Part shown: in pieces, positions 1 through 10,966 of the stretch
How the letters are laid out: each line of letters begins with the position of its first letter
Position numbering within the stretch: the first letter of the stretch is position 1
Source of the DNA: a virus
Taxonomy: Duplodnaviria > Heunggongvirae > Uroviricota > Caudoviricetes
Direction: 5' to 3' (one strand)
Length of the DNA: 10,966 nucleotides
Virus record (IMG/VR): IMGVR_UViG_2671180454_000005
Program-made: the position numbers and the translations under genes
The notes under the pieces: generated by a model
The model's database searches: none
What the model saw: only the letters and a program-made list of their open reading frames with translations
Told to the model about the DNA's origin: nothing

Positions 1-367
1 CCTCAAAAACACCATCATACACTAAATCAGTAAGTTGGCAGCATCACCAGCCTTCTTGAGGCTACCACCTGTTTTCAGGTGTCATTCAGACGTGATTTGC
101 CCCAGATTGGGAAAGCACGCTTTTTTCTCAGCTATCGTCCTCTTATTTTGCCGTTACATTTCTTTTTGCATTCTAATGATTAATTTACAATAATAATATC
201 GGTAATTATTGAGTAATAATAAATTAATTATTGCAAATGTAATTTAATTCCATCTTCGCGTTATATTCCAATCTTTAATCTCCGCATGGAACAAGTTGCA
301 TGCGTGACTATATTAAGACGACTTATAACCACCAAAACATTTGCTTTGCAAGCAAAAACAGTGACCA

Positions 368-396
368 TTGACTCTAAGAAAATTCCGATCTATTGT
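368..396 (+). promoter_or_regulatory. Candidate sigma70 promoter (TTGACT, 17-bp spacer, TATTGT), predicted start about 403-405
   Basis: -35 TTGACT at 368-373 (5/6 to consensus), 17-bp spacer, -10 TATTGT at 391-396 (4/6). It is 35 bp upstream of the 431 ATG. AT-rich DNA contains many promoter-like hexamers (another is TTGCAT-17-AATAAT near 166-194), so specificity is low. Confidence 0.25.
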
Positions 397-430
397 TAGG
401 GTCATCAAAGTTACTTAACAGTATTCCGAA

Positions 431-532
431 ATGAAAATACAAAGCAAGCTAATTGTCTTATTAAACATTATTATTGCATTTATATTATTTGAGCTTTTAG
501 CTCAAAAATTTGGTTTGAGTACATTATTTTAA
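431..532 (+). CDS. Hypothetical 33-aa hydrophobic peptide (MKIQSKLIVLLNIIIAFILFELLAQKFGLSTLF); speculative
   Basis: ATG at 431 to TAA at 530-532, with an apparent single transmembrane-like segment. A promoter-like sequence lies upstream and a terminator downstream. There is no convincing Shine-Dalgarno, and AT-rich DNA inflates hydrophobic codons, so this may be chance. Confidence 0.2.
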   Translation: MKIQSKLIVLLNIIIAFILFELLAQKFGLSTLF

Positions 533-681
533 AGCAAGATAAACAATATCGGGCACTCTAGTTTTTATAATTAACAATTAAACGTCCATAAAATGTTATT
601 TACTTTTCTTCGCTATTGTCATATCTTAATATAGTGGCTTACGCCACTCTACTTTCATCACATTTTGTACGTTTATGTACT

Positions 682-714
682 CGCCATGAAGCTCTTTCAT
701 GGCGATTTTTTATT
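682..714 (+). terminator. Intrinsic terminator on the plus strand, convergent with tfa (9-bp stem CGCCATGAA / TTCATGGCG, loop GCTCT, then ATTTTTTATT)
   Basis: Perfect 9-bp inverted repeat at 682-690 / 696-704 followed by a T-rich tract at 705-714. On the minus strand the hairpin is not followed by a U-tract, so it is mainly a plus-strand terminator; it could also contribute to ending the tfa transcript. Confidence 0.55.
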
Positions 715-797
715 CTTAATCCAAGAACATACTCCCTACCTATAGCAAAATCACTTTTTTAACAAAAGAATAACGTATTTAGGTAATCATTACGAAT

Positions 798-1379
798 TTA
801 CCCTATAGGTGCTACTGGCCATTCAATATCCGGTGCAGTTGATGTATCAACACGGTTCAGCAACACCCGATACTTTTTCCAAGCTTCCAGCAACAAGGTT
901 TCTTTCTCCGTTGCGATCTCCAGATCCACAGCATCCTGAAGCGGCGCTATATGCTCACTGGCTACCTGCATCAGGCTGTTTTTTGTTTCTTCCGCCTCCC
1001 GGATCCGGAACAGTTTTTCTGCTTCCGTATCCTTCACCCAGGCTGTGCCGTTCCACTTCTGAAACTCCCCTTCCGGGGATAACCAGGTGACATTTTCCGG
1101 TAATGAGCCGAGTTCAGAAATAAATAACGCGTCGCCGGAAGCCACGTCATAAACCGTTTTACCCCGATGATCTTCAACGAGATGCCACGATGACTCATCA
1201 CTGTTGAAAACAGCCACGAAACCAGCCGGAATATCTGGCGGTGCAATATCGGTACTGTTTGCAGGCAGACCTGTATGAGGCGGAATATATGCGTCACCTT
1301 CACCAATAAATTCATTAGTTCCGGCCAGCAGGTTATAAATTTTTATGGTCCGTGCTTGTTCACTCATTCTGAATGCCAT
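798..1379 (-). CDS. tfa: Tail fibre assembly protein Tfa (193 aa)
   Basis: [62 protein letters not shown]... is near-identical to lambda Tfa as recalled. The ATG at 1379-1377 overlaps the stf stop by one base (TAATG), with a GAGG Shine-Dalgarno inside the stf 3' end. Confidence 0.9.
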
Positions 1380-4300
1380 TATGCGAGCCTCACAATATAG
1401 TTAAATGCGATGTTTTTGACGGTGTTTTCCGCGTTACCAGCAGCGTTAACGGTGATGGTGTGTCCATGTGAACCAATCGCAACAGAGTGCGTATGAGCAC
1501 CAATACCGACAGTATGCGCGTGTGCACCCGCAGATGCTGCTGTGCCGGACAGTGAGTGTGTATGGTTTCCTTCTGAAGATGATTTACCTACCCATTGGGA
1601 GGTGCCACTGGTTAATGAGCCACTGATACCAACCTGATTAGTCCCGCTAACTTGAGTACTCCCTGCCGGAAACATTCCAGTAGGTTGACTCCCGCTATTC
1701 GTTCTGGGCCCAGTCTGACTATGTTGGTGGGCCCCAGCTGAACTTGTAGAGCCGCTCAGACTGTGCGTATGCGCCCCGGTGTTATTCGTGGATTTAGTGC
1801 CGTAATCAAACGACGATGTGGTTTTCGTCCCCAAATCCGTACTGGATGCGCTGGCGCTGTGGGTGTGCGATTTAATGCCATCCTGTTCCTGAGACAATAC
1901 GGCACGACCACTGGCGGGCTTGCCCTTAATCGTCCAGCCACGCATATCAGGGATCACGCCTGACGGATAAGCGGCTGCAAGTTTCGGGTAAGCAGATTTG
2001 TCAAAAGTCTGCCCCTGCATCAGGGCATAACCAGACGGAACGGTATCTGATGGCCACGGGATTGGTGCACCGACTGGATAAAACTCTGCAGGAGGATGAG
2101 CCGAGGTGTAAAGCTGCGCCCACGGCGACCAGTTTGCGTCGGTCGTATCCCGTCGTGAACGAATAAATGCCGGAGCATGAGCACCGCTTGTACCACTCCA
2201 GCCGATGAGTAACTCACCTTCGCCAACGGCTGTCATCCCTTTCAGGTGAATGATATTTCCATACGCTGTTGGATATCCGTTGTTATACACCTCGTATAAC
2301 TCAAGACCTGCTGCCCCCTGCGTATTGTCTGTCAGCGCGGCTACCCGACCTTTTGAAGCCAGATTAACTGATGATACTGCTGTTCCACCTGACGGTAGCG
2401 CCCCGATCTCTGATGCCGTTGGCTTATTTCTGGAGTTATAGTCCCTTCGCCAGCCAGGTGAATAATCTGTTCCGTGATTAATATAGGTAAACTGGGCGTT
2501 GGTTGTTCCGCCACCGCTGGATGTGGTCGGAGTGGTAATGCGGATCGTCATCGCTGACTTTATCCCCATTACTTCAATGACAGCTCCGGCGAGATGAATA
2601 TTACCGCAGCCAGTATCAGTAATGATTTTATTATTGCCATAAGACCAGGAACCCTTGCACATCCAGTATGGATGGTTAAATGCTCCCTGAGAATCCAGCC
2701 ACTCGATAAACTGTGCAGTCGTCCAGTTTCCTGTTGTTGTGCTTACTGACCCACCGAAGGCACGGCAGGCACCAATATTTTTCGTAAAGGTGTCTTTGCC
2801 AGGGATATCCGCACCGTTCTGATCTTTCTGCAGACGTTTCTCAGCATTGTCATTGGCTGCTTTTACTGCCTTTGGCGTTGCCGCCAGCGTTTCAGACGTG
2901 CTGTTGGTCGCGCTGCTTAGCTGGATTATCCCTTTCTGTGCTGTCGTTGCATCCTGTGCGGTGTATTTCCCGTTAGCCAGGTCATACGCGGCCTTAACGG
3001 CTTTTGGTGTTGCCGCCAGTGACTCGGAAGTGCTGTTAGTCGCACTACTGAGCTGTACTATCCCCTTTTTCGTCGTGCTCGCATCCTCAAGCGCCACGGC
3101 GGATGCAATATCCTCTGCCCGTTTTGCCGCTGTCTCAGCGCGCGTTGCTGCAGATTCCGCCGTACTTTTGCTCTGAGCTGCTGCCGTCGCACTACCAGCA
3201 GCCTCTGTCGCCTTCGTGGATGCCGTCGTGGCGCTGCCCTTCGCTGCTGACGCCTGTCTGGTCGCCTCATCTTTTGAAGCAGACGCCGATGATGCCGATG
3301 ACGCCGCCGAACTGGCGGACGATGCGGCAGCCGTTTTTGAGGATTCTGCACGGGTTTCCGACGCTTTCGCGTTCGTTTCGGATGTCTTCGCTGCGGAAGC
3401 TGACCTCGCTGCTGCCGTGGCCTGCTCAGTGGCTTCGCCAGCCTTCGTTGTGGCTGTTGAAGCGGATGATGCGGCGCTTTCTGCCGATTTTCCGGCGGCG
3501 GTGGCACTGGCTGAGGCCTGCCCGGCACTTGTTGACGCGGCGCTGGCAGACGACGCAGCCGCTGTTTTTGAGCCTGCCGCAGCTGAGGCACTCTGTCCCG
3601 CTGCCGTTTCAGAAGACCTGGCGTTCGTCTCGGACGTTTTGGCCGCCTTCGCAGAATTTGCAGCCGCCGTCGCCGAGGAAGCTGCGCTACTGGCGCTTGA
3701 TGATGCGTTCGTTTCTGATGATTTTGCCGCCTCTTTTGAAGCCGACGCATCCCGGGCTGAGGTGGCAGCTTCTGACGCTTTCGTGGTCGCGGTGGATGCA
3801 GAAGTGGCTGCTGATTGTTGTGACGCTGCCGCATTCGTTTCTAACGTTTTCGCCGCACCGGCACTGGTAGCCGCCGCGCTTTTTGAGGACTCTGCAGCGG
3901 CAGCACTTTTTGAGGCTTCAGTGGCCTTTGTTGATGCCGTTCCTGCGCTGGAAGACGCTGACTGAGCCGACGAAGCGGCCTGTCCGGCTGACGTGCTGGC
4001 TGCACGTGCTGAATCTGCAGCATCAGTCGCATGGGTTGCCGCCTCACGGGCTGATGTGCTGGCATCGCTGGCTGATTTCTTCGCGGCTGCCGTGTTCTGT
4101 GCCACCGCGGACGCGTTACGCGCCACCTCTTCCACCATCAGCTCAAAACGGCGCAGTGCCTCCGGACGGGCATCATCCTCCGTCATGGCACCGAGAAAAT
4201 CATTCAGCGTACCGGGTCGGGAATCTTCATACACGGTGATGGTCCCGGCATGTGACGGCGGGAATCCTTCCACCAACAGAATAACGCTGTACTGACCGTA

Positions 4301-4462
4301 CTCAACGTCCATGCTGTAACGCCCGGCTTCATCCGGATTTTCTGAGGCCAGCGTGTTCACCACCACCGTGGTGCTGTTACGTTTTGCTTTCAGCTGGATT
4401 GTGCAGTTCTGTACCGGTTTTCCTGTGCCGTCTTTCAGTACACCTGAAATCTTTACTGCCAT
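1379..4462 (-). CDS. stf: Side tail fibre protein Stf, 1027 aa, mosaic (lambda-like N- and C-termini, expanded Ala/Ser/Thr-rich shaft, extra central domain)
   Basis: ATG at 4462-4460 preceded by GGGGTG. N-terminus [36 protein letters not shown]... and C-terminus ...[49 protein letters not shown] match lambda Stf as recalled, including the His-X-His repeats. The track ORF 1379..4705 is a run-through across the N gap; everything upstream of 4462 is artefact. The stop overlaps the tfa ATG. Confidence 0.85.
2854..3078 (-). repeat. Intragenic tandem duplication (2 x ~129 bp, 43 codons) inside stf, encoding TT(K/A)(K/Q)GI(V/I)[11 protein letters not shown](S/T)[11 protein letters not shown]
   Basis: Two consecutive near-identical 43-aa units (aa ~463-505 and ~506-548). 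Lambda Stf, as I recall it, has this motif once. Confidence 0.75.
3082..4114 (-). repeat. Low-complexity Ala/Ser/Thr-rich coding repeat region inside stf (about aa 117-460), with recurring AAKTSETNA-type units
   Basis: Translation is dominated by A/S/T with repeated KTSETNA(A/R/K)SSE and [10 protein letters not shown] motifs. The same DNA yields long spurious ORFs in other frames and on the plus strand, which is typical of GC-rich codon repeats. Confidence 0.7.
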
Positions 4463-4496
4463 ATTCACCCCACAAAAAAGCCCGCCTGAACCGGCG

Positions 4497-4629
4497 NNNN
4501 NNNNNNNNNNNNNNNNNNNNNNNNNNNNNNNNNNNNNNNNNNNNNNNNNNNNNNNNNNNNNNNNNNNNNNNNNNNNNNNNNNNNNNNNNNNNNNNNNNNN
4601 NNNNNNNNNNNNNNNNNNNNNNNNNNNNN
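4497..4629. other. Scaffold/assembly gap (133 N)
   Basis: Run of n characters. Sequence on the two sides is not contiguous: IS interior on one side, stf upstream hairpin on the other. Confidence 1.
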
Positions 4630-4873
4630 GTCTTTCTGGCTGGCGGTTCAGGGTATTTGAGGTAGCGTCTGACCGTCCGTTCAGAGCAACCAATCTGAGT
4701 CGCAATATCGACGATGTACGCGCCCTGCTGGCGCATTTGCTTTATCATGTAAAAGTCCTCTCTGCTCAGCATGTTGATGTCCTTTCTGGTGTGAGAACCT
4801 TAAGGAAACAACATGTTGGGTGGAGCGGACAATCCAAATGGCGAATTACCGTCTTATATCACTGGCGCTGACA
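4630..4873 (-). mobile_element. istA: IS21-family insertion sequence, left-end fragment (terminal ~100 bp plus first 47 codons of the istA transposase), running into the N gap
   Basis: Minus-strand ORF starting at 4772 encodes MLSREDFYMIKQMRQQGAYIVDIATQIGCSERTVRRYLKYPEPPARK, which I recognise as the helix-turn-helix N-terminus of IS21-family IstA. A candidate IS terminus begins 5'-TGTCAGCGCCAG at minus-strand position 4873, the TG start being typical of IS21 ends. The family call is from memory; the exact boundary is uncertain by a few bp. Confidence 0.6.
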
Positions 4874-5185
4874 CTTCATCACCTCCGGACGTAAATCACC
4901 ATCCTTTGGTGCATTCAGAAACGCGTTCAGTGTCCCCGGTGCATCAGTCGGTGCCACATCAATATCCCCGACACGGGTTGGCTGCCAGCCGTTACAGTGA
5001 AGCGCAACCTCGTAATACCCCGGCTCAGCCTCAATCACATAAGCACCGTTATTGTCCGTCACGCAAGTGGCAACAACGTGTGCCACAACGGTCGGACTGG
5101 TTCTTCTGGCCCGCAGTTCAATCGCACAATTTACGACAGGTTTACCCGCCCCATCTTTCAGTACACCTGAAATCTTTACTGCCAT
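4859..5185 (-). pseudogene. stf: Truncated side-tail-fibre gene: N-terminal 104 codons of an Stf-like protein, fused to 4 codons plus stop from the adjacent IS terminus
   Basis: ATG at 5185-5183. [28 protein letters not shown]... is a divergent allele of the Stf N-terminus at 4462 ([28 protein letters not shown]...), and the two share ...PGTLN(A/D)FL...RPE. The ORF ends ...PEVMK-CQRQ*, where TGTCAGCGCCAGTGA is the start of the IS-like segment. The track's upstream extension (MTARWFRRAFCGVN) reads through the terminator hairpin and is not credible. Confidence 0.65.
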
Positions 5186-5196
5186 ATTCACCCCAC

Positions 5197-5221
5197 AAAA
5201 AGCCCGCCTGAACCAGCGGGC
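5197..5221 (-). terminator. Intrinsic terminator downstream of lom (GCCCGC-TGGTTCAG-GCGGGC plus TTTTT on minus strand), immediately 5' of the stf-like start codon
   Basis: Plus strand 5197-5221 aaaagcccgcctgaaccagcgggc. A partial copy (gcccgcctgaaccggcg) sits at 4480-4496 against the N gap, upstream of the full stf. Confidence 0.6.
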
Positions 5222-5248
5222 AGTCATAACACTGTGTTACCTGGCTAA

Positions 5249-5848
5249 TCAGAACTTATAACCGACACCCACGATGAAACCGTCAGTGCGCCAGTCACCA
5301 CTGCCGGAACCTTCATAAGCAAGGTCAATGGCCACGGATTCGGTCGGGTTAAACTGCACGCCAGCCCCCCACGCCAGAGACGTGTTGCTGTGGCGACCGC
5401 CATCACTTCCGGTCAGCACATCGTGCGTTTTCCCCTTGTTGTCAGTTACGCGGAGATAATCCCCGGAGAAGGTCGACACACGGCTGTAAGCCACGCCCGC
5501 CATCGCATACGCGCTGAACCATTCATTCACGCGCACAGACGGCCCCGCCATCACGCTGAACCAGCGGTTACGCACGGAATCCTCATGCCAGCGGGTATCG
5601 CTGTAATGCGTTTTTTGCTCATCTTCAGCGTTGGCATAACTGAATGACGTAATCAGCCCCAGCGTGTCCGTAAACTCATAACGGTATTTCACGTTAATGC
5701 CCTTCAGGTCATCGCTGCCTGGCATATCAGTATGGGTCTGAAGATACCCGGCGCTCAGCGTGGACTGATGTTCAGACGCCCATGCAGGCGCACCGGATAC
5801 GGCCAGACAGATGGCTGCGGACAAAATGGCTGCACAAACTTTACGCAT
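5249..5848 (-). CDS. lom: Lom / Ail-family outer membrane beta-barrel protein (199 aa), apparently intact
   Basis: Predicted signal peptide MRKVCAAILSAAICLAVSGAPAWA. Motifs GINVKYRYE, AYAMAGVA and the C-terminal AYEGSGSGDWRTDGFIVGVGYKF match lambda Lom as I recall it. GAGAGG Shine-Dalgarno 8 nt upstream of the ATG; stop TGA at 5249. Confidence 0.9.
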   Translation of the reverse strand: MRKVCAAILSAAICLAVSGAPAWASEHQSTLSAGYLQTHTDMPGSDDLKGINVKYRYEFTDTLGLITSFSYANAEDEQKTHYSDTRWHEDSVRNRWFSVMAGPSVRVNEWFSAYAMAGVAYSRVSTFSGDYLRVTDNKGKTHDVLTGSDGGRHSNTSLAWGAGVQFNPTESVAIDLAYEGSGSGDWRTDGFIVGVGYKF

Positions 5849-5872
5849 AATTACCTCTCGCTTTTCTGCAAT

Positions 5873-5896
5873 AAAAAAGGCACCATTTCTGGTGCC
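5873..5896 (-). terminator. Intrinsic terminator (GGCACC-AGAAAT-GGTGCC plus T-run on minus strand) upstream of lom
   Basis: Plus strand aaaaaaggcaccatttctggtgcc; identical to the copy at 6509-6532. Confidence 0.55.
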
Positions 5897-5915
5897 CGTA
5901 TCTGGGTTATAAAAT

Positions 5916-5982
5916 TCAGCTAATCGTGATGCCTGCAGTGGCTTTCTTCATCACCACAACCAGCAAATCGCTGATACTTGCT
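5916..5982 (-). other. Isolated 67-bp J 3'-end fragment (identical to 6552..6618) abutting ambiguous base N5983
   Basis: 5849..5982 is base-for-base identical to 6485..6618 (lom upstream region, terminator, last 22 codons of the J copy). Homology ends at N5983, after which the sequence switches to lom-downstream DNA. Confidence 0.7.
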
Positions 5983-6009
5983 NGTCATAACACTGTGTTA
6001 CCTGGCTAA

Positions 6010-6484
6010 TCAGAATTTATAACCGACACCCACGATGAAACCGTCAGTGCGCCAGAGACGTGTTGCTGTGGCGACCGTCATCACTTCCGGTCAGCACATC
6101 GTGCGTTTTCCCCTTATTGTCAGTTACGCGGATATAATCCCCGGAAAAAGTCGACACACGGCTGTAAGCCACACCCGCCATCGCATACGCGCTGAACCAG
6201 CGGTTACGCACGGAATCTTCATGCCAGCGGGTATCGCTGTAACGGGTCAGCTGGCGATTCTTGTCTCCTGCATAGCTGAATGACGTCACCAGCCCCAGCG
6301 TATCCGTAAACTCATAACGGTATTTCACGTTAATCCCGTTCAGATCATCACTGCCGGGAACGTTGGTCCGGGCATGAAGATACCCCGCGCTCAGCGTGGA
6401 CTGATGTTCAGACGCCCATGCAGGCGCACCGGATACGGCCAGGCAAATGGCTGCGGACAAAATGGCTGCACAAACTTTACGCAT
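6010..6484 (-). pseudogene. lom: lom-like outer membrane protein gene, disrupted copy (42-bp in-frame deletion plus 83-bp frameshifting deletion relative to the copy at 5249..5848)
   Basis: Start MRKVCAAILSAAICLAVSGAPAWASEHQSTLSAGY is identical to intact lom. Aligning against 5249..5848 shows a 42-bp deletion between 9-bp direct repeats CGCTGAACC (removes SVMAGPSVRVNEWF) and an 83-bp deletion between 6-bp direct repeats CGCCAG (copy-1 coordinates 5295..5377). The second deletion shifts the frame, giving a premature TGA at 6044. The native stop position is conserved at 6010-6012. Confidence 0.75.
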
Positions 6485-6508
6485 AATTACCTCTCGCTTT
6501 TCTGCAAT

Positions 6509-6532
6509 AAAAAAGGCACCATTTCTGGTGCC
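6509..6532 (-). terminator. Intrinsic terminator downstream of the J fragment (GGCACC-AGAAAT-GGTGCC plus T-run on minus strand)
   Basis: Plus strand aaaaaaggcaccatttctggtgcc; same structure as 5873-5896. Confidence 0.55.
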
Positions 6533-6551
6533 CGTATCTGGGTTATAAAAT

Positions 6552-7985
6552 TCAGCTAATCGTGATGCCTGCAGTGGCTTTCTTCATCACCACAACCAGC
6601 AAATCGCTGATACTTGCTGTGGGATACCAGCCATTTACCAGCCATGCCGATACAGAAAACTCCAGCGTCATGTGACCGTGACCGGCAGGCATATCAATAA
6701 CACCCGTATATATCAGCGTATTATCCAGGGTCGTTCGGTTATAAATTTCAGCACCGTTTTTCTTCACTATCAGGCGGCATGACGAATAAATATTGTTATT
6801 CTTCCGCTCATGTTTAGCACCGCGAAACGCCACCGCGGGAATAACAATTTGCCGATCAAACGGCTGATCGTCATAAACCCTGACGGTAATGGTCCCTGAT
6901 GGCCACCTCTCCGGTGCCCGGGAGTCCCGTGGGAAAGGTTTGCCCACTGTTTTAACGAGATCGCCTTCAATCTGGTTCGCGGACAATTTTCCCAGAACCC
7001 GACAGTTCTTATTAATCGTGACGTTGTTGAGCGTCCCGGAGTTCGCGTTCACGTTACCGCTGATATCGGCATTTTTCGCCGTCAGCCGTCCGCCAGGTGT
7101 CAGGGAAAATGCCGGAGGATTACCGCCGCTGGTAATGGTCGGAGCCGTCAGGCATTTCAGGAACACGTCGTTCATGAATATCTGATCGCCCTGACCAACA
7201 AACATCGGCTTTGTGTTGCCATTCGCAGGATTAATCATCGCAATCCTGTCTGCCGCCAGCAGCACCTGACTCTGCATTCCTGCTGGCGTATTCTCAATAC
7301 CGGCACCGATACCCGCAATATAAAGGCGTCCGTCCTTCATCTGTTGCAGCTTCACAGCCCACATGCTGTTCAGGTTATTATTTGTATCAACCTGAACTTT
7401 CTGTATCTGCTGGATTGCAGCACTCTGATTTTCCAGTTTTTTATTGACGGTTTGCGTGATTTCATTGCTGACATTCGTAATGGACGTCCTGATTTCAGTC
7501 AGGTCCGGCGCAAGCTGACCGTTATCAATCTGCGTCCACAACTCCTTGCCGAGATGCGTTTTATTGATCAACCCTTTATAAAAATTCAGATAACCTTCTG
7601 CATCATCGCTCGCCCGACCGATGGCCTCCACAAATGCCGATTTGCCAACGGTGTTCACACTGCGAACGTAAAAATAATAATCATGGCCCGGCCTGATATT
7701 GATACTGGCGGCTATCCAGTACAGCGCCGTGCCAAGATAGCGGGCGCTGGTTTCAACCTGCCTGATATCCGCAATCCGCTTTTCCGAAAACCAGAACTCA
7801 AACTGCACCGTCGGGTCATATACAGCCAGTTTCGGGACCGCCGTTATCTGAAAATACCCCGGTATCAGTTCAATAGTGACAGGCGCTGCCGGTGCCGCAA
7901 TCCGGAACGATACCGACGCCGGATCGCCCTGCTGCCCCCGGGCATTTACCGCCCGGACTGTCAGACTGTAATTCCCCAGCGCCAG
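6552..7985 (-). pseudogene. J: J C-terminal fragment (about 478 codons), second copy, 5'-truncated at N7986; carries a different C-terminal receptor-binding domain from the main J
   Basis: In-frame translation ([32 protein letters not shown]... [10 protein letters not shown]) aligns to the main J copy from about 9535 to 8082. The two are near-identical over about 320 aa, then diverge over the last ~155 aa (6552 to ~7015 versus 8082 to ~8565). Stop TGA at 6552-6554. No start codon or N-terminal 650 aa, so not a complete gene here. Confidence 0.8.
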
Positions 7986-7986
7986 N

Positions 7987-8011
7987 AAATGGCTGCACAA
8001 ACTTTACGCAT
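7987..8011 (-). other. 25-bp lom 5' fragment (ATG plus 8 codons, MRKVCAAI) ending at ambiguous base N7986
   Basis: Minus-strand ATGCGTAAAGTTTGTGCAGCCATTT is identical to the first 25 nt of lom at 5848 and 6484, preceded by a GAGAGG Shine-Dalgarno. The sequence past N7986 is J-internal, not lom. Confidence 0.7.
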
Positions 8012-8032
8012 AATTACCTCTCGCTTTTCTGC

Positions 8033-8059
8033 AATAAAAAAGGCGTCATTCCTGACGCC
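8033..8059 (-). terminator. Intrinsic terminator downstream of J (minus-strand hairpin GGCGTCA-GGAA-TGACGCC followed by a T-run)
   Basis: Read directly: plus strand 8036-8059 is aaaaaaggcgtcattcctgacgcc, giving a 7-bp GC-rich stem, 4-nt loop and 6 U on the minus strand. It lies between the J stop (8082) and the lom start codon (8011). Confidence 0.6.
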
Positions 8060-8081
8060 ATTTATTGGGGTTATAAATATT

Positions 8082-10966
8082 TCAACGAATACTGATGCCG
8101 GAAGCCGCTTTTTTGGTCACAATCACCGTACAGTCGGTGATATTGCCTGCCCCCTGATTGCCTTTCTGGAAAATCTTAAACTCCAGAGTGACGCTACCAC
8201 CACCACTAGGCATATCAATAACTGCACTGTAACTACCGGGAATGGCACCTTTAGTTTCTCTGGATGCGATTAATACGCCGTTTTTGCGAACTTCAAAACC
8301 ATAACCCGTGTATCGCGTGCCTCCTGGGTTATTTCCGCTCCCCGGATCGTCATACGCTATACCGTTAAAAATAATGGGCGGAATAATAATCTGGCGGTCA
8401 AAGTTATGATCATCGCTTATGGTGACTGTAACCGTCCCGTTTGGTGTTTCCGTGTTACCCCACGTACCAGCCTGTTTCGGAAATGATTTGGATACAGCTT
8501 TAACGAAGTCACCTCTGACCTGAGTCGCCTCCAGCATGCCCTTAATCGTACAGTTTTCATTTACCGTGACATTGTTGAGCGTCCCGGCGTTCGCATTCAC
8601 ACTGCCACTGATATCCGCATTTTTAGCGGTCAGCTTTCCGTCCGGAGTCAGGGAAAATGCCGATGGATTTCCACCGCTGGTAATGGTGGGGGCCGTCAGG
8701 CGTTTCAGGAACACGTCGTTCATGAATATCTGATCGCCCTGACCAACAAACATCGGTTTTGTGTTGCCATTCGCAGGATTAACCATCGCAATCCTGTCCG
8801 CCGCCAGCAGCACCTGACTCTGCATGCCGTCAGGGGTGTTCTCAATACCGGCACCAATACCCGCGATATAAAGGCGTCCGTCCTGCATCTGCTGCAGCTT
8901 CACAGCCCACATGCTGTTCAGGTTATTATTTGTATCAACCTGAACCTTCTGTATCTGCTGAATTGCCGCACTCTGGTCTTCCAGTTTCTTATTGACGGTC
9001 TGCGTGATTTCATTGCTGACATCCGTAATGGACGTCCTGATTTCAGCCAGGTCAGGCGCAAGCTGACCGTTATCAATCTGCGTCCACAGCTCCTGAGCCA
9101 GATGGGTTTTCCCTATCTCGCCTTTGAAAAAATCCAGATAACCGGATGCATCATCACTCGGCTGACCAACAGCCTCCACGAATGCCGATTTGCCAACGGT
9201 GTTCACACTGCGGATATAAAAGTAATAATCATGGCCCGGTTTGATATTGATACTGGCGGCTATCCAGTACAGCGCCGTGCCAAGATAGCGTGCTGTGGTT
9301 TCAACCTGCCTGATATCCGCAATCCGCTTTTCCGAGAACCAGAACTCAAACTGTACCGTCGGATCATAAACCGCAAGATGCGGCGTGGCGGTTATCTGAA
9401 AATAGCCCGGCGTCAGCTCAATCCGCGACAGCGCTGCCGGTGCGGCAATCCGGAACGATACCGACGCCGGATCGCCCTGCTGCCCCCACGCATTTACTGC
9501 CCGGACTGTCAGCCTGTAGTTCCCCAGCGCCAGTTGTGTGAAGCGGTAAGTGGTTTCCGTCGTCCGGGCCGTGCTGACCAGCCGCTCACTGCCGTCATCC
9601 GCTGTTACGGTCAGACGGAGCAGGAAGCTCACGCCCTTCACCACCTTCGGCGTGTCCCAGCGCGCCAGCACCTGATATTCCCCGCTGTCTGCGGTGACTT
9701 CGGCAGTCAGGTGCTGCACCGCTGGCGGCGTGACACCATTCACCGTGCCGCTCTGGTCGCCGTCAAAGTGCGCCCCGTTATCCACGATGGCTTCTTTTTC
9801 CGGCACATGCTGCACGGCGGTGATGGCATACGTGCCGTCGTCGTTCTCACGGATACTCACGCAGCGGAACAATCGCTGGTGCAGCGTCGGCAGCTTCAGC
9901 CCCCACACGCTGTATTCAGCAACACCGTCAGGAACACGGCTCACTTTTACCTTCACGCCGTCGGTGACGGACTGGACCTCCACGCTGACCGGATTCCCCT
10001 GCCCGTCAACCAGGCTTATCAGCGTGGTGCCGGAGGATGGCAGCGTGATTTCACGGTCGAGCGTCAGCGTCCGGGTCTGGCTGTTCACCGCCAGCACGCG
10101 CCCGCCGGTGCGGATACCGGCATAGTCATCATCGCAGATTTCAATGACATCGCCCGGTACATGACGAAGCCCTTCAGCACCCACGCTGAAATCCACGGTC
10201 TGCGTCTCCAGCAGTTCCGTTTTAATCAGCCACAGCCCGGCGCGGTGTGCCTGCCCCCGGCTGGTACAGCCAAAGGCATCCATCTTCGTGACATTACGAC
10301 CGTAACGGGCAATGGCCTGCGTATCCTCCACAAGCTCTGTCGCCGTCTCCCAGCCGTTATCCGGGTCAATCCAGTTCACCTCAACGGCATTATGGCGGTC
10401 TTTCAGGGCGCTGAAACTGTAGCGGAACGGCGCGCCATCATCCGGCATCACCACATTACTGCGGTTATAGGCCCACACCTTATCCGACTGTCGGTCCTGC
10501 ACGAACGTCAGCGTCTGCCCGTTCCATACCGGCATACAGCGCATCGCCGAGCAGAAATCACTGAGCACATCCCACGCCTTGCGCTGTGTGGTCAGCCAGG
10601 CATTACAGGTGATGCGCGGCTCCGTGCTGCCAAAGCCGTCCGGCACCGACTGGTCACAGTACTGGCCGATGACATACAGCGCCCATTTATCCACATCTGC
10701 CGCACCAAGACGTTTCCCCATGCCATAGCGCGGATGGGTCAGCATATCCCACAGACACCAGGCCATGTTGTTGCTGTATGCCGGTTTTAACGTTCCGTCC
10801 CAGATACCGCTGTATTGCCGCGTCTGCGGATTATAGTTCGACGGCACCTGCAGAATGCGCCCGCGAAGATGATAATTACGGCTCACCTGCTGGCTGCCGA
10901 ACTGCTCCGAATCCACCTGTACGCCGACCAGTGCCGTGTTCGGGTAGCACTGTTTCACATCGATGA
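8082..10966 (-). CDS. J: Host specificity protein J (tail tip / central tail fibre), 5'-partial: the reading frame runs off the window edge
   Basis: Open frame of 958+ codons on the minus strand. The translation ([57 protein letters not shown]... [21 protein letters not shown]...) matches lambda J as I recall it. The track's first 'M' at 10958 is an internal GTG (Val), and the frame stays open to 10966. Stop TGA at 8082-8084. Confidence 0.9.

Follow-up and report, generated by a model that had tools for sequence, protein, structure and literature searches.

The window, a stretch of 10,966 nt, is the entire record CXDT01000145.1 (GCA_001249065.1), a Shigella sonnei draft scaffold, for which a literature search by accession returned no match. 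Its Lom' protein is listed under the name S. sonnei. It carries phage tail genes whose Pfam families fit those of phage lambda, namely Phage-tail_3, Ig_J, Phage_Tail_Tip and Ig_GpJ_C for J, Ail_Lom for Lom, phage_tail_N for Stf, and Caudo_TAP for Tfa (Table 1). The only non-ACGT characters are a 133-N run (4497-4629) and single Ns at 5983 and 7986, delimiting four blocks, A (1-4496), B (4630-5982), C (5984-7985) and D (7987-10966). The 133-N run marks the record as a scaffold, and the suspect joins are gap characters, not sequence. The apparent false join at the 133-N gap, the likely chimeric structure of block C, the 83- and 42-nt losses in lom' and the IS21 end were absent from the initial annotation.

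Table 1. Features of the window, with their assignment to blocks and to the two reconstructed loci, P1 and P2.
Feature	Position	Strand	Block or locus	Basis
Block A	1-4496	-	P2	colinear with the eight P2 loci
tfa, tail fibre assembly gene	798-1379	-	block A	ORF call and Pfam
stf, side tail fibre gene (1027 aa)	1379-4462	-	block A	ORF call and Pfam
stf-lom intergenic terminator hairpin, first 34 nt	4463-4496	-	end of block A	
133-N scaffold gap, apparent false join	4497-4629	.	P2/P1	
IS21-family element end (istA N-terminal region), in stf'	4630-4877	-	P1	istA identity
Rest of block B	4878-5982	-	P1	ORFs, repeats, finished-locus identity
stf' N-terminal fragment	start codon at 5185	-	block B	
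lom, intact (199 aa)	5249-5848	-	block B	
Spacer (67 nt)	5849-5915	-	block B	
J' 3' end (last 67 nt)	5916-5982	-	block B	
Single-N join, apparently false	5983	.		
C-left: lom' pseudogene and 33 nt upstream of ATG	5984-6517	-	P2	
lom' pseudogene, with frameshifted ORF 6044-6484 (146 aa)	ATG 6484, original stop 6010-6012	-		
42-nt loss site in lom'	6180-6199, break at 6189/6190	-		
71-nt exact P1/P2 repeat (lom codons 1-13 and 33 nt upstream)	6447-6517	-		
C-right: spacer (6518-6551) and 3' 1434 nt of J' (6552-7985)	6518-7985	-	P1	
Single-N join, apparently false	7986	.		
Block D	7987-10966	-	P2	ORF call and Pfam
lom', first 25 nt	7987-8011	-	block D	
Spacer IG''	8012-8081	-	block D	
J'' (at least 958 codons)	8082 to record end	-	block D	

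The initial annotation had reported single Ns at non-syntenic joins, and both were confirmed at 5983 and 7986. To the left of N5983 lay the last 67 nt of J preceded by a 67-nt spacer, described previously as about 70 bp, and its right flank (5984-6009) was made up of the first 26 nt past the lom' stop codon; sequence to the right of this N also matched 5223-5254 over 32 nt. The left flank of N7986 was internal to J, with an ORF (6552-8000) running through the N, while to its right (7987-8011) came the opening 25 nt of lom, read on the minus strand. The fusion of a lom start to J-internal sequence described earlier was therefore present, with its length corrected from ATG plus 24 nt to ATG plus 22 nt. 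The reported identity between 5849-5982 and 6485-6618 was reproduced (134/134) and extended further than claimed, with 5811-5982 identical to 6447-6618 (172/172 nt). Likewise, 7987-8044 (58 nt) was identical to both 5824-5881 and 6460-6517 (58/58). Exact repeats of 58 to 172 nt are far above chance. The stub fragments were exact duplicates, with neither divergence nor flanks of their own, and on sequence comparison the J 3' stub and the lom start stub appear to be the same genomic bases written twice, across contig overlaps of 172 and 58 nt that were left unmerged. The true continuation of 5982 is 6619, where GATACTTGCT reads directly into GTGGGATACC, and the true predecessor of 5984 is GGCT, itself preceded by 4496. 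Because 7987-8044 is the same as 6460-6517, block D truly runs into C-left and not into J', a join borne out in the finished loci.

Finished chromosomes, the decisive ones found by searching with the exact Lom(B) and Stf(A) proteins, revealed two syntenic modules approximately 0.67 Mb apart. All blocks were present in finished chromosomes, including S. sonnei 53G, at 99.97 to 100% identity, as two separate and fully syntenic J-lom-stf modules, with P1 and P2 located 662 to 668 kb apart in the three chromosomes carrying both. The two sides of the joins matched different loci of these finished same-species genomes, and the re-joined pieces were colinear with them.

Locus P1, composed of B and C (6619-7985) and reading J'-lom-stf'::IS21, matched ten loci without a gap or mismatch over 2720 nt (100.000% identity); these loci lie on chromosome records of finished size (~4.8 Mb), most likely those of S. 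sonnei. In these ten loci, all 1353 nt of block B were matched at 100% identity and continued directly into the sequence of 6619-7985, which constituted the J directly upstream of lom(B) (1367/1367). The same stretch of J' was 99.6% identical to J of Escherichia coli FDAARGOS_943. The IS21-family end (4630-4877) shared 99.6 to 100% identity with annotated istA of E. coli records; its boundary with stf' is approximate (4874-4879), with E. coli prophage matches to block B starting at 4874, and the IS-stf' junction was the same in the ten finished-chromosome loci.

Locus P2, reading J''-lom'-stf-tfa and composed of A, GGCT, C (5984-6517) and D (8045-10966), aligned end to end (7956 nt) with eight further loci, including S. 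sonnei 53G (HE616528.1) and one short-read draft of another accession series, with two SNPs and one 42-nt gap. Both SNPs relative to the finished loci, at 10293 and 10309, fell in block D, and the GGCT between 4496 and 5984 was exact in finished loci. The exact Stf(A) protein adjoined a J''-type J and lom' in eight loci, one of which was S. sonnei 53G. In E. coli 181.1, IG'' (100%) and the J'' C-terminus (98.75%) of block D were matched and followed by lom', and C-left was 99.6% identical to the full-length lom' allele of this strain.

Both reconstructed loci followed the J, lom, stf, tfa order of phage lambda on one strand, with fitting protein families, as judged from Pfam families of the called genes in the window and the finished loci and from the annotation of the E. 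coli homologues. The pairing was J'-lom(B) in all ten finished P1 loci and J''-lom' in all eight P2 loci. The J'-lom' module (6044-7985) of the initial annotation is a false pairing, J' belonging with lom(B), and lom' with J'' (D) and stf (A); the modules number two and not three, the stubs being duplicate bases.

Within CP104423.1, no exact P1/P2 match in the vicinity of the lom start was longer than the 71-nt repeat, and the left end of block D falls inside this repeat. C-left matched P2 only and C-right matched P1 only. Block C itself is probably chimeric, with an unmarked P2/P1 crossover located within this repeat (6447-6517). What is observed directly is how the blocks are arranged, where they overlap and that, once re-joined, they are exactly colinear with finished chromosomes and an independent draft. 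In that draft, an S. sonnei scaffold of the CX series (L004), window position 5984 was followed by 4 nt and then by window position 4496, with 100% identity on both sides. A single-N join lay at the lom-start repeat there too, but a different one, the same lom' contig being connected to another partner, and the draft contained a third J-lom copy.

Neither N junction was reproduced in independent assemblies. Among 5,426 closed E. coli genomes, 3,375 contained a syntenic control junction and none the N5983 or the N7986 junction; the closest matches in this set were only 96 to 99% identical, which demonstrates synteny, not identity. Exact junction scans of viral, metagenome and GTDB genome collections, which do not contain the window's source record, using a pattern that does match an N in its targets, recovered neither junction, and these empty scans are informative solely as absence. 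Both were also missing from every fetched locus bar the window itself. Each joint contains an N, and a continuous joint sequence occurred nowhere else.

These data strongly support the view that the window is a short-read S. sonnei draft in which two paralogous lambdoid tail modules, ~0.67 Mb apart, have been interleaved, representing an assembly artefact and not recombination scars. A chimeric assembly was also the preferred reading of the initial annotation, and the two syntenic modules of finished genomes support it. As to mechanism, contigs from two paralogous loci interleaved by a paired-end scaffolder are a better description than the single bubble walked twice that it proposed. The structure in this isolate would correspond to that of the other S. 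sonnei genomes, from which it is deduced, and the software presumably behaved as a greedy paired-end scaffolder followed by a gap closer of the SSPACE/GapFiller type. P1 and P2 have numerous short exact repeats in common, and those at the lom start (71 nt) and within lom (86 nt) are the longest of this region. In the proposed model, as read pairs in those repeats would link contigs of one locus with contigs of the other, the scaffolder would interleave the blocks in the order A (P2), B (P1), C (P2 then P1) and D (P2). Neighbours truly overlapping by 172 and 58 nt would not be merged end to end, resulting in the minimal one-N gap; in SSPACE and ABySS conventions, a single N denotes a negative gap with no overlap found. 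The assembler would switch from P2 to P1 inside block C, within the 71-nt repeat, leaving no N, and 42 nt would be lost inside the 86-nt repeat, between two copies of a 10-nt word. The 133-N gap appears to be a third false join, judging from the loci matched on its two sides. The model leaves unaccounted for the size of this gap and the points at which B (5982) and C (7985) stop on the right, which lie off the P1/P2 repeat boundaries; a third J-lom copy, as in the independent draft, may be involved there. A de Bruijn k-1 signature at the block ends was rejected, the terminal exact matches of 172, 32, 14 and 58 nt fitting no single k, and gap filling has probably modified the ends.

Such behaviour has precedent. 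Page et al. (2016, PMC5320598) describe N gaps as the way in which scaffold joins are recorded, and SSPACE and GapFiller as greedy tools capable of false joins. As in the false joins of greedy scaffolders and gap closers (PMC5320598, PMC3446322), those in the window are N-marked and connect contigs that share terminal repeats and derive from distant paralogous loci. As in SSPACE/GapFiller-type errors, one N stands where contigs truly overlap, and a 42-nt loss at a 10-nt overlap is within GapFiller default tolerances, its gap closure accepting an overlap of ≥10 nt and a size discrepancy of ≤50 nt (Boetzer & Pirovano 2012, PMC3446322).

The lom' gene carries two losses. It shares with lom an 86-nt exact repeat, the longest lom/lom' exact match, and differs from lom(B) at positions such as 6160 (A against G) and 6222 (T against C). 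An 83-nt deletion at 6049/6050 was also carried by the finished P2 loci, where lom' is called at 160 aa, and its presence in finished genomes rules out a gap-closing artefact. A further 42 nt, CGCTGAACCATTCATTCACGCGCACAGACGGCCCCGCCATCA, were missing at 6189/6190; these run from CGCTGAACCATTC to CCATCA, and the window junction reads CATACG followed directly by CGCTGAACCAGCGG. This loss is flanked by the 10-nt direct repeat CGCTGAACCA and was found only in the window and L004. It is probably a gap-closure collapse, in agreement with its position exactly within the longest exact lom/lom' repeat, with the fit of its size and 10-nt overlap to the GapFiller default closure rule, and with the origin of both affected drafts in the same CX accession series; all eight other P2 loci, including the short-read draft of a different series, retained the 42 nt. 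A real deletion in the lineage of the two isolates is unlikely but carries some weight, given that the two drafts come from different isolates and are identical over 471 nt, that deletion between 10-nt direct repeats occurs in vivo, and that lom' was already a pseudogene, with no selection against further deletion.

Far less probable is that block C is genuine, i.e., a recombinant J'-spacer-lom'-stf locus in which only B is misplaced, the second locus then being J''-spacer''-lom(B)-stf'::IS21. Block C is continuous and free of N, both resolutions satisfy the 58- and 172-nt overlaps, and homologous exchange at the conserved 71-nt block is mechanistically plausible. However, block B joins lom(B) to a J'-type spacer and the J' 3' end, 101 nt past the shared repeat, in contradiction to J''-lom(B), the pairings in the ten P1 and eight P2 loci are likewise incompatible with it, and the contig in L004 is also broken in this repeat. 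The related arrangement of an intact block C with D joined to B was ruled out by the matches to finished loci (P1 100%).

Least probable of all is that the joins are real, the scaffold being a tandem array of partial J-lom units generated by illegitimate recombination among lambdoid prophages, with the Ns as uncalled bases; lambdoid tail modules are mosaic and decay is seen in Shigella prophages (an IS element disrupts stf', and lom' has its 83-nt deletion), but the sole single Ns in 10,966 nt sit exactly on the two non-syntenic joins, the supposed fragments are byte-identical to sequence elsewhere in the scaffold, all blocks re-join into two intact loci syntenic with finished chromosomes, either junction is found in no other genome or contig, and in another draft of the species the same lom' contig has a different neighbour. 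It is equally hard to credit that this isolate truly has the order J''-lom stub-J' fragment-lom'-J stub-lom-stf', unlike every finished S. sonnei genome examined; if it did, the scaffold order would document ongoing, serial illegitimate exchange between two prophages resident in one genome at a distance of 0.67 Mb. Among genuine mosaics, E. coli 181.1 and FDAARGOS_943 combine J, spacer and lom differently and switch near the conserved start of lom, at the 71-nt block, hence real exchange could occur there. In the window, by contrast, finished genomes contradict both the N junctions and the apparent exchange point of block C, and no natural sequence contains the joins. Nothing found supports the exchange between prophages that the initial annotation had offered as its alternative.

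The interleaving of two loci by the assembly process therefore provides no evidence of tail-module shuffling in the window and has no biological import of its own. Its value lies in curation. A public GenBank record fuses two prophages 0.67 Mb apart, and holds an apparent unmarked chimeric join, pairing J' with the wrong lom, together with a probable 42-nt collapse. Artefactual proteins have entered nr in this way, namely a Lom of 146 aa and, through a sister record, an Stf-Lom fusion of 282 aa. A single-N join in the short-read draft of a genome rich in IS elements and prophages, such as that of Shigella, is no basis for calling a mosaic boundary. Unlike phage lambda, the loci are decayed remnants, with lom' of P2 a pseudogene and stf' of P1 cut by an IS21-family element, and the real features underlying the record, the 83-nt lom' deletion and this insertion, are those of ordinary prophage decay.

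The finding is an assembly artefact. The 146-aa product of lom' has one exact match, CXDT01000145.1 (GCA_001249065.1, 10,966 nt), which is the window itself, and the deposited protein (CSR46865.1) bears the name Shigella sonnei. The sized gap of 133 N identifies the record as a scaffold, not a contig. Three N runs account for all non-ACGT characters and delimit four blocks, A to D, in which the minus strand is the coding strand of every gene. These blocks carry parts of two lambdoid prophage tail loci, P1 (J', lom, stf') and P2 (J'', lom', stf, tfa). The region contains five assembly errors, counting a 42-nt loss in lom' that is probably one of them.

Blocks, N runs and assembly errors in the scaffold
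Feature	Position	Strand	Content
Block A	1-4496	-	stf and tfa of P2
N run; error, 133-N join	4497-4629		133 N; P2 joined to P1
Block B	4630-5982	-	lom and stf'::IS21 of P1
N run; error, single-N join	5983		one N
Block C	5984-7985	-	lom' of P2 (C-left) and J' of P1 (C-right)
Probable error, 42-nt loss	6189/6190		in lom'
Error, unmarked P2-to-P1 crossover	within 6447-6517		71-nt exact repeat in block C
N run; error, single-N join	7986		one N
Block D	7987-10966	-	J'' of P2

The initial annotation described the window structure correctly. The identity it reported between 5849-5982 and 6485-6618 holds, and the exact identity is in fact longer, at 172 nt (5811-5982 and 6447-6618). At N5983 a 67-nt spacer and the 67-nt 3' end of J are, as described, fused to lom-downstream sequence, namely the 26 nt that follow a lom stop. 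At N7986 a lom start is indeed fused to internal J, although it is 25 nt long (ATG plus 22 nt) and not ATG plus 24 nt. Block C opens with a copy of 5223-5254, and block D with 58 nt (7987-8044) that are identical to both 5824-5881 and 6460-6517. The apparent J 3' and lom start stubs are unmerged contig overlaps, identical genomic bases written twice. The 133-N gap (flanks 4463-4496 and 4630-4877) likewise joins non-syntenic sequence, the third join of this kind: block A stops 4 nt (GGCT) before the first base of block C, and block B starts inside an IS21-family istA gene. A mechanical ORF at 1379-4705 (1108 aa) spans the 133 Ns and is not real.

For closed-genome comparison, we used 5,426 complete E. 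coli genomes, in which the 3.3-kb region resolved into single J-lom-stf loci of ~2.25 kb, in five overlapping pieces with top identities of 96-99%. Junction probes of 55 nt (27 nt + N + 27 nt, either half alone failing the E-value cut-off) for N5983 and N7986 gave zero matches in these genomes, while a control probe with the same left half and the syntenic continuation into J matched 7,266 places in 3,375 genomes. Neither junction was found by exact scans of viral, metagenome and GTDB genome collections, using a pattern search that can match N in the target and recovered the window's own copy.

Block A stops within the stf-lom terminator hairpin (...AAAAAAGCCCGCCTGAACCGGCG) and block C opens with GTCATAACACTG; in E. 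coli 181.1, GGCT alone lies between these sequences. Block C's lom' has a 99.6% match in the lom of that strain, and block D matches the strain's spacer at 100% and its J C-terminus at 98.75%. E. coli FDAARGOS_943, conversely, has a lom and stf that match block B and a J that shares 99.6% identity with J' of block C. The leftmost 248 nt of block B are the end of the IS21-family element. Together, these matches suggested that only two loci are interleaved in the scaffold, with P1 as J'(C-right)-lom(B)-stf'::IS21 and P2 as J''(D)-lom'(C-left)-stf(A)-tfa, under which block C would be chimeric across a shared repeat.

Exact protein look-up of Lom (block B) returned ten loci in records of ~4.8 Mb chromosomes, and re-joined P1 (4630-5982 plus 6619-7985) matched 10/10 at 100.000% over 2720 nt with no gap. 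Look-up of Stf (block A) returned eight loci, including HE616528.1, cited in the literature as S. sonnei 53G. Re-joined P2 (A + GGCT + 5984-6517 + 8045-10966) aligned end to end over 7956 nt, with two SNPs (10293 and 10309) and a single gap, of 42 nt, at 6189/6190. The GGCT linker had been a guess and proved an exact match to finished P2 loci. Against CP104423.1, 10293 A to G and 10309 G to A, both in J'', were the sole base differences. P1 and P2 lie 662-668 kb apart in three chromosomes with both loci. CP019689.1 (4,621,248-4,643,264) carries two P1 modules with lom genes ~9.4 kb apart, an apparent tandem tail-region duplication flanked by IS elements, unlike the single P1 copy of other finished genomes.

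An independent S. sonnei draft, CXAM01000182.1 (L004; GCA_001261375.1, regions 2036-2971 and 3919-3977), runs from window 6454 to 5984, then 4 nt, then 4496 to 3554, both segments at 100%, so that block A is seen to adjoin C-left in another data set. This draft has a single N of its own, at 2500, which lies in the same lom-start repeat and links lom' to an unrelated stf N-terminal fragment, a different wrong partner for lom' than in the window. The fragment meets lom' at codon ~11, and the false join gives rise to the deposited 282-aa 'outer membrane protein' CSN59748.1, a Stf-Lom chimera. The sequences on either side of the draft's 59-N gap share 55 nt when placed on the window (3554-3608).

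Relative to a 99.6%-identical full-length E. coli allele, lom' (6044-6484) lacks 83 nt at 6049/6050, bounded by the 6-nt CGCCAG, and 42 nt bounded by the 10-nt direct repeat CGCTGAACCA; the 83-nt deletion makes lom' a frameshifted pseudogene. In P1, the IS21-family element breaks stf' after ~100 codons (region 4630-5185). Finished genomes carry both the 83-nt deletion and the insertion, so both are real, and the insertion, whose junction with stf' is identical in ten finished-chromosome loci, is apparently fixed. The 42-nt loss occurs only in the two CX-series drafts and in 0/8 other P2 loci; it is probably artefactual, and a real deletion shared by the lineage of those drafts is less likely. 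A 63-nt in-frame segment of tfa (798-1379), at 1193-1255, is present in most finished loci, is not a tandem repeat and is missing from S. sonnei 53G and L004, an apparent indel polymorphism of this tail fibre assembly gene.

We infer a scaffolder mechanism for the record. Read pairs in exact P1/P2 repeats would tie contigs of separate loci together, a greedy scaffolder would then order the mismatched contigs in series, and a minimal one-N gap would be written where the estimated distance was at most zero and the contig ends were not found to overlap. One-N gaps are the convention of SSPACE and ABySS. The crossover and the 42-nt loss fall inside the lom region's two longest exact P1/P2 repeats (71 and 86 nt, respectively). 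In a candidate pipeline, Velvet + SSPACE + GapFiller, joins create N gaps, and the greedy SSPACE and GapFiller steps can make false joins (Page et al. 2016, PMC5320598). GapFiller closes gaps at an extension overlap of at least 10 nt and a size discrepancy of at most 50 nt (PMC3446322), a rule that the 42-nt loss at a 10-nt repeat fits. Neither the end of B (5982) nor that of C (7985) is a P1/P2 repeat boundary, and finished genomes (L005, position 4500) run J' on past 7985 with no long exact P2 repeat there. Both ends may be due to an additional, third copy of J-lom of the kind seen in L004; the stop at 7985 may reflect either a third copy of J in this isolate or a fall in coverage.

The chimeric assembly preferred by the initial annotation is supported, with its copy number, gene pairing and mechanism revised. 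Its alternative, recombination scars, is not supported: the re-joined blocks are colinear with two separate finished-genome loci, in which both modules keep intact order, and the junctions were not found in the closed E. coli genomes or the collections scanned. The region holds two decayed but ordinary lambdoid tail modules, not three, and the single-N joins represent no real biological feature.
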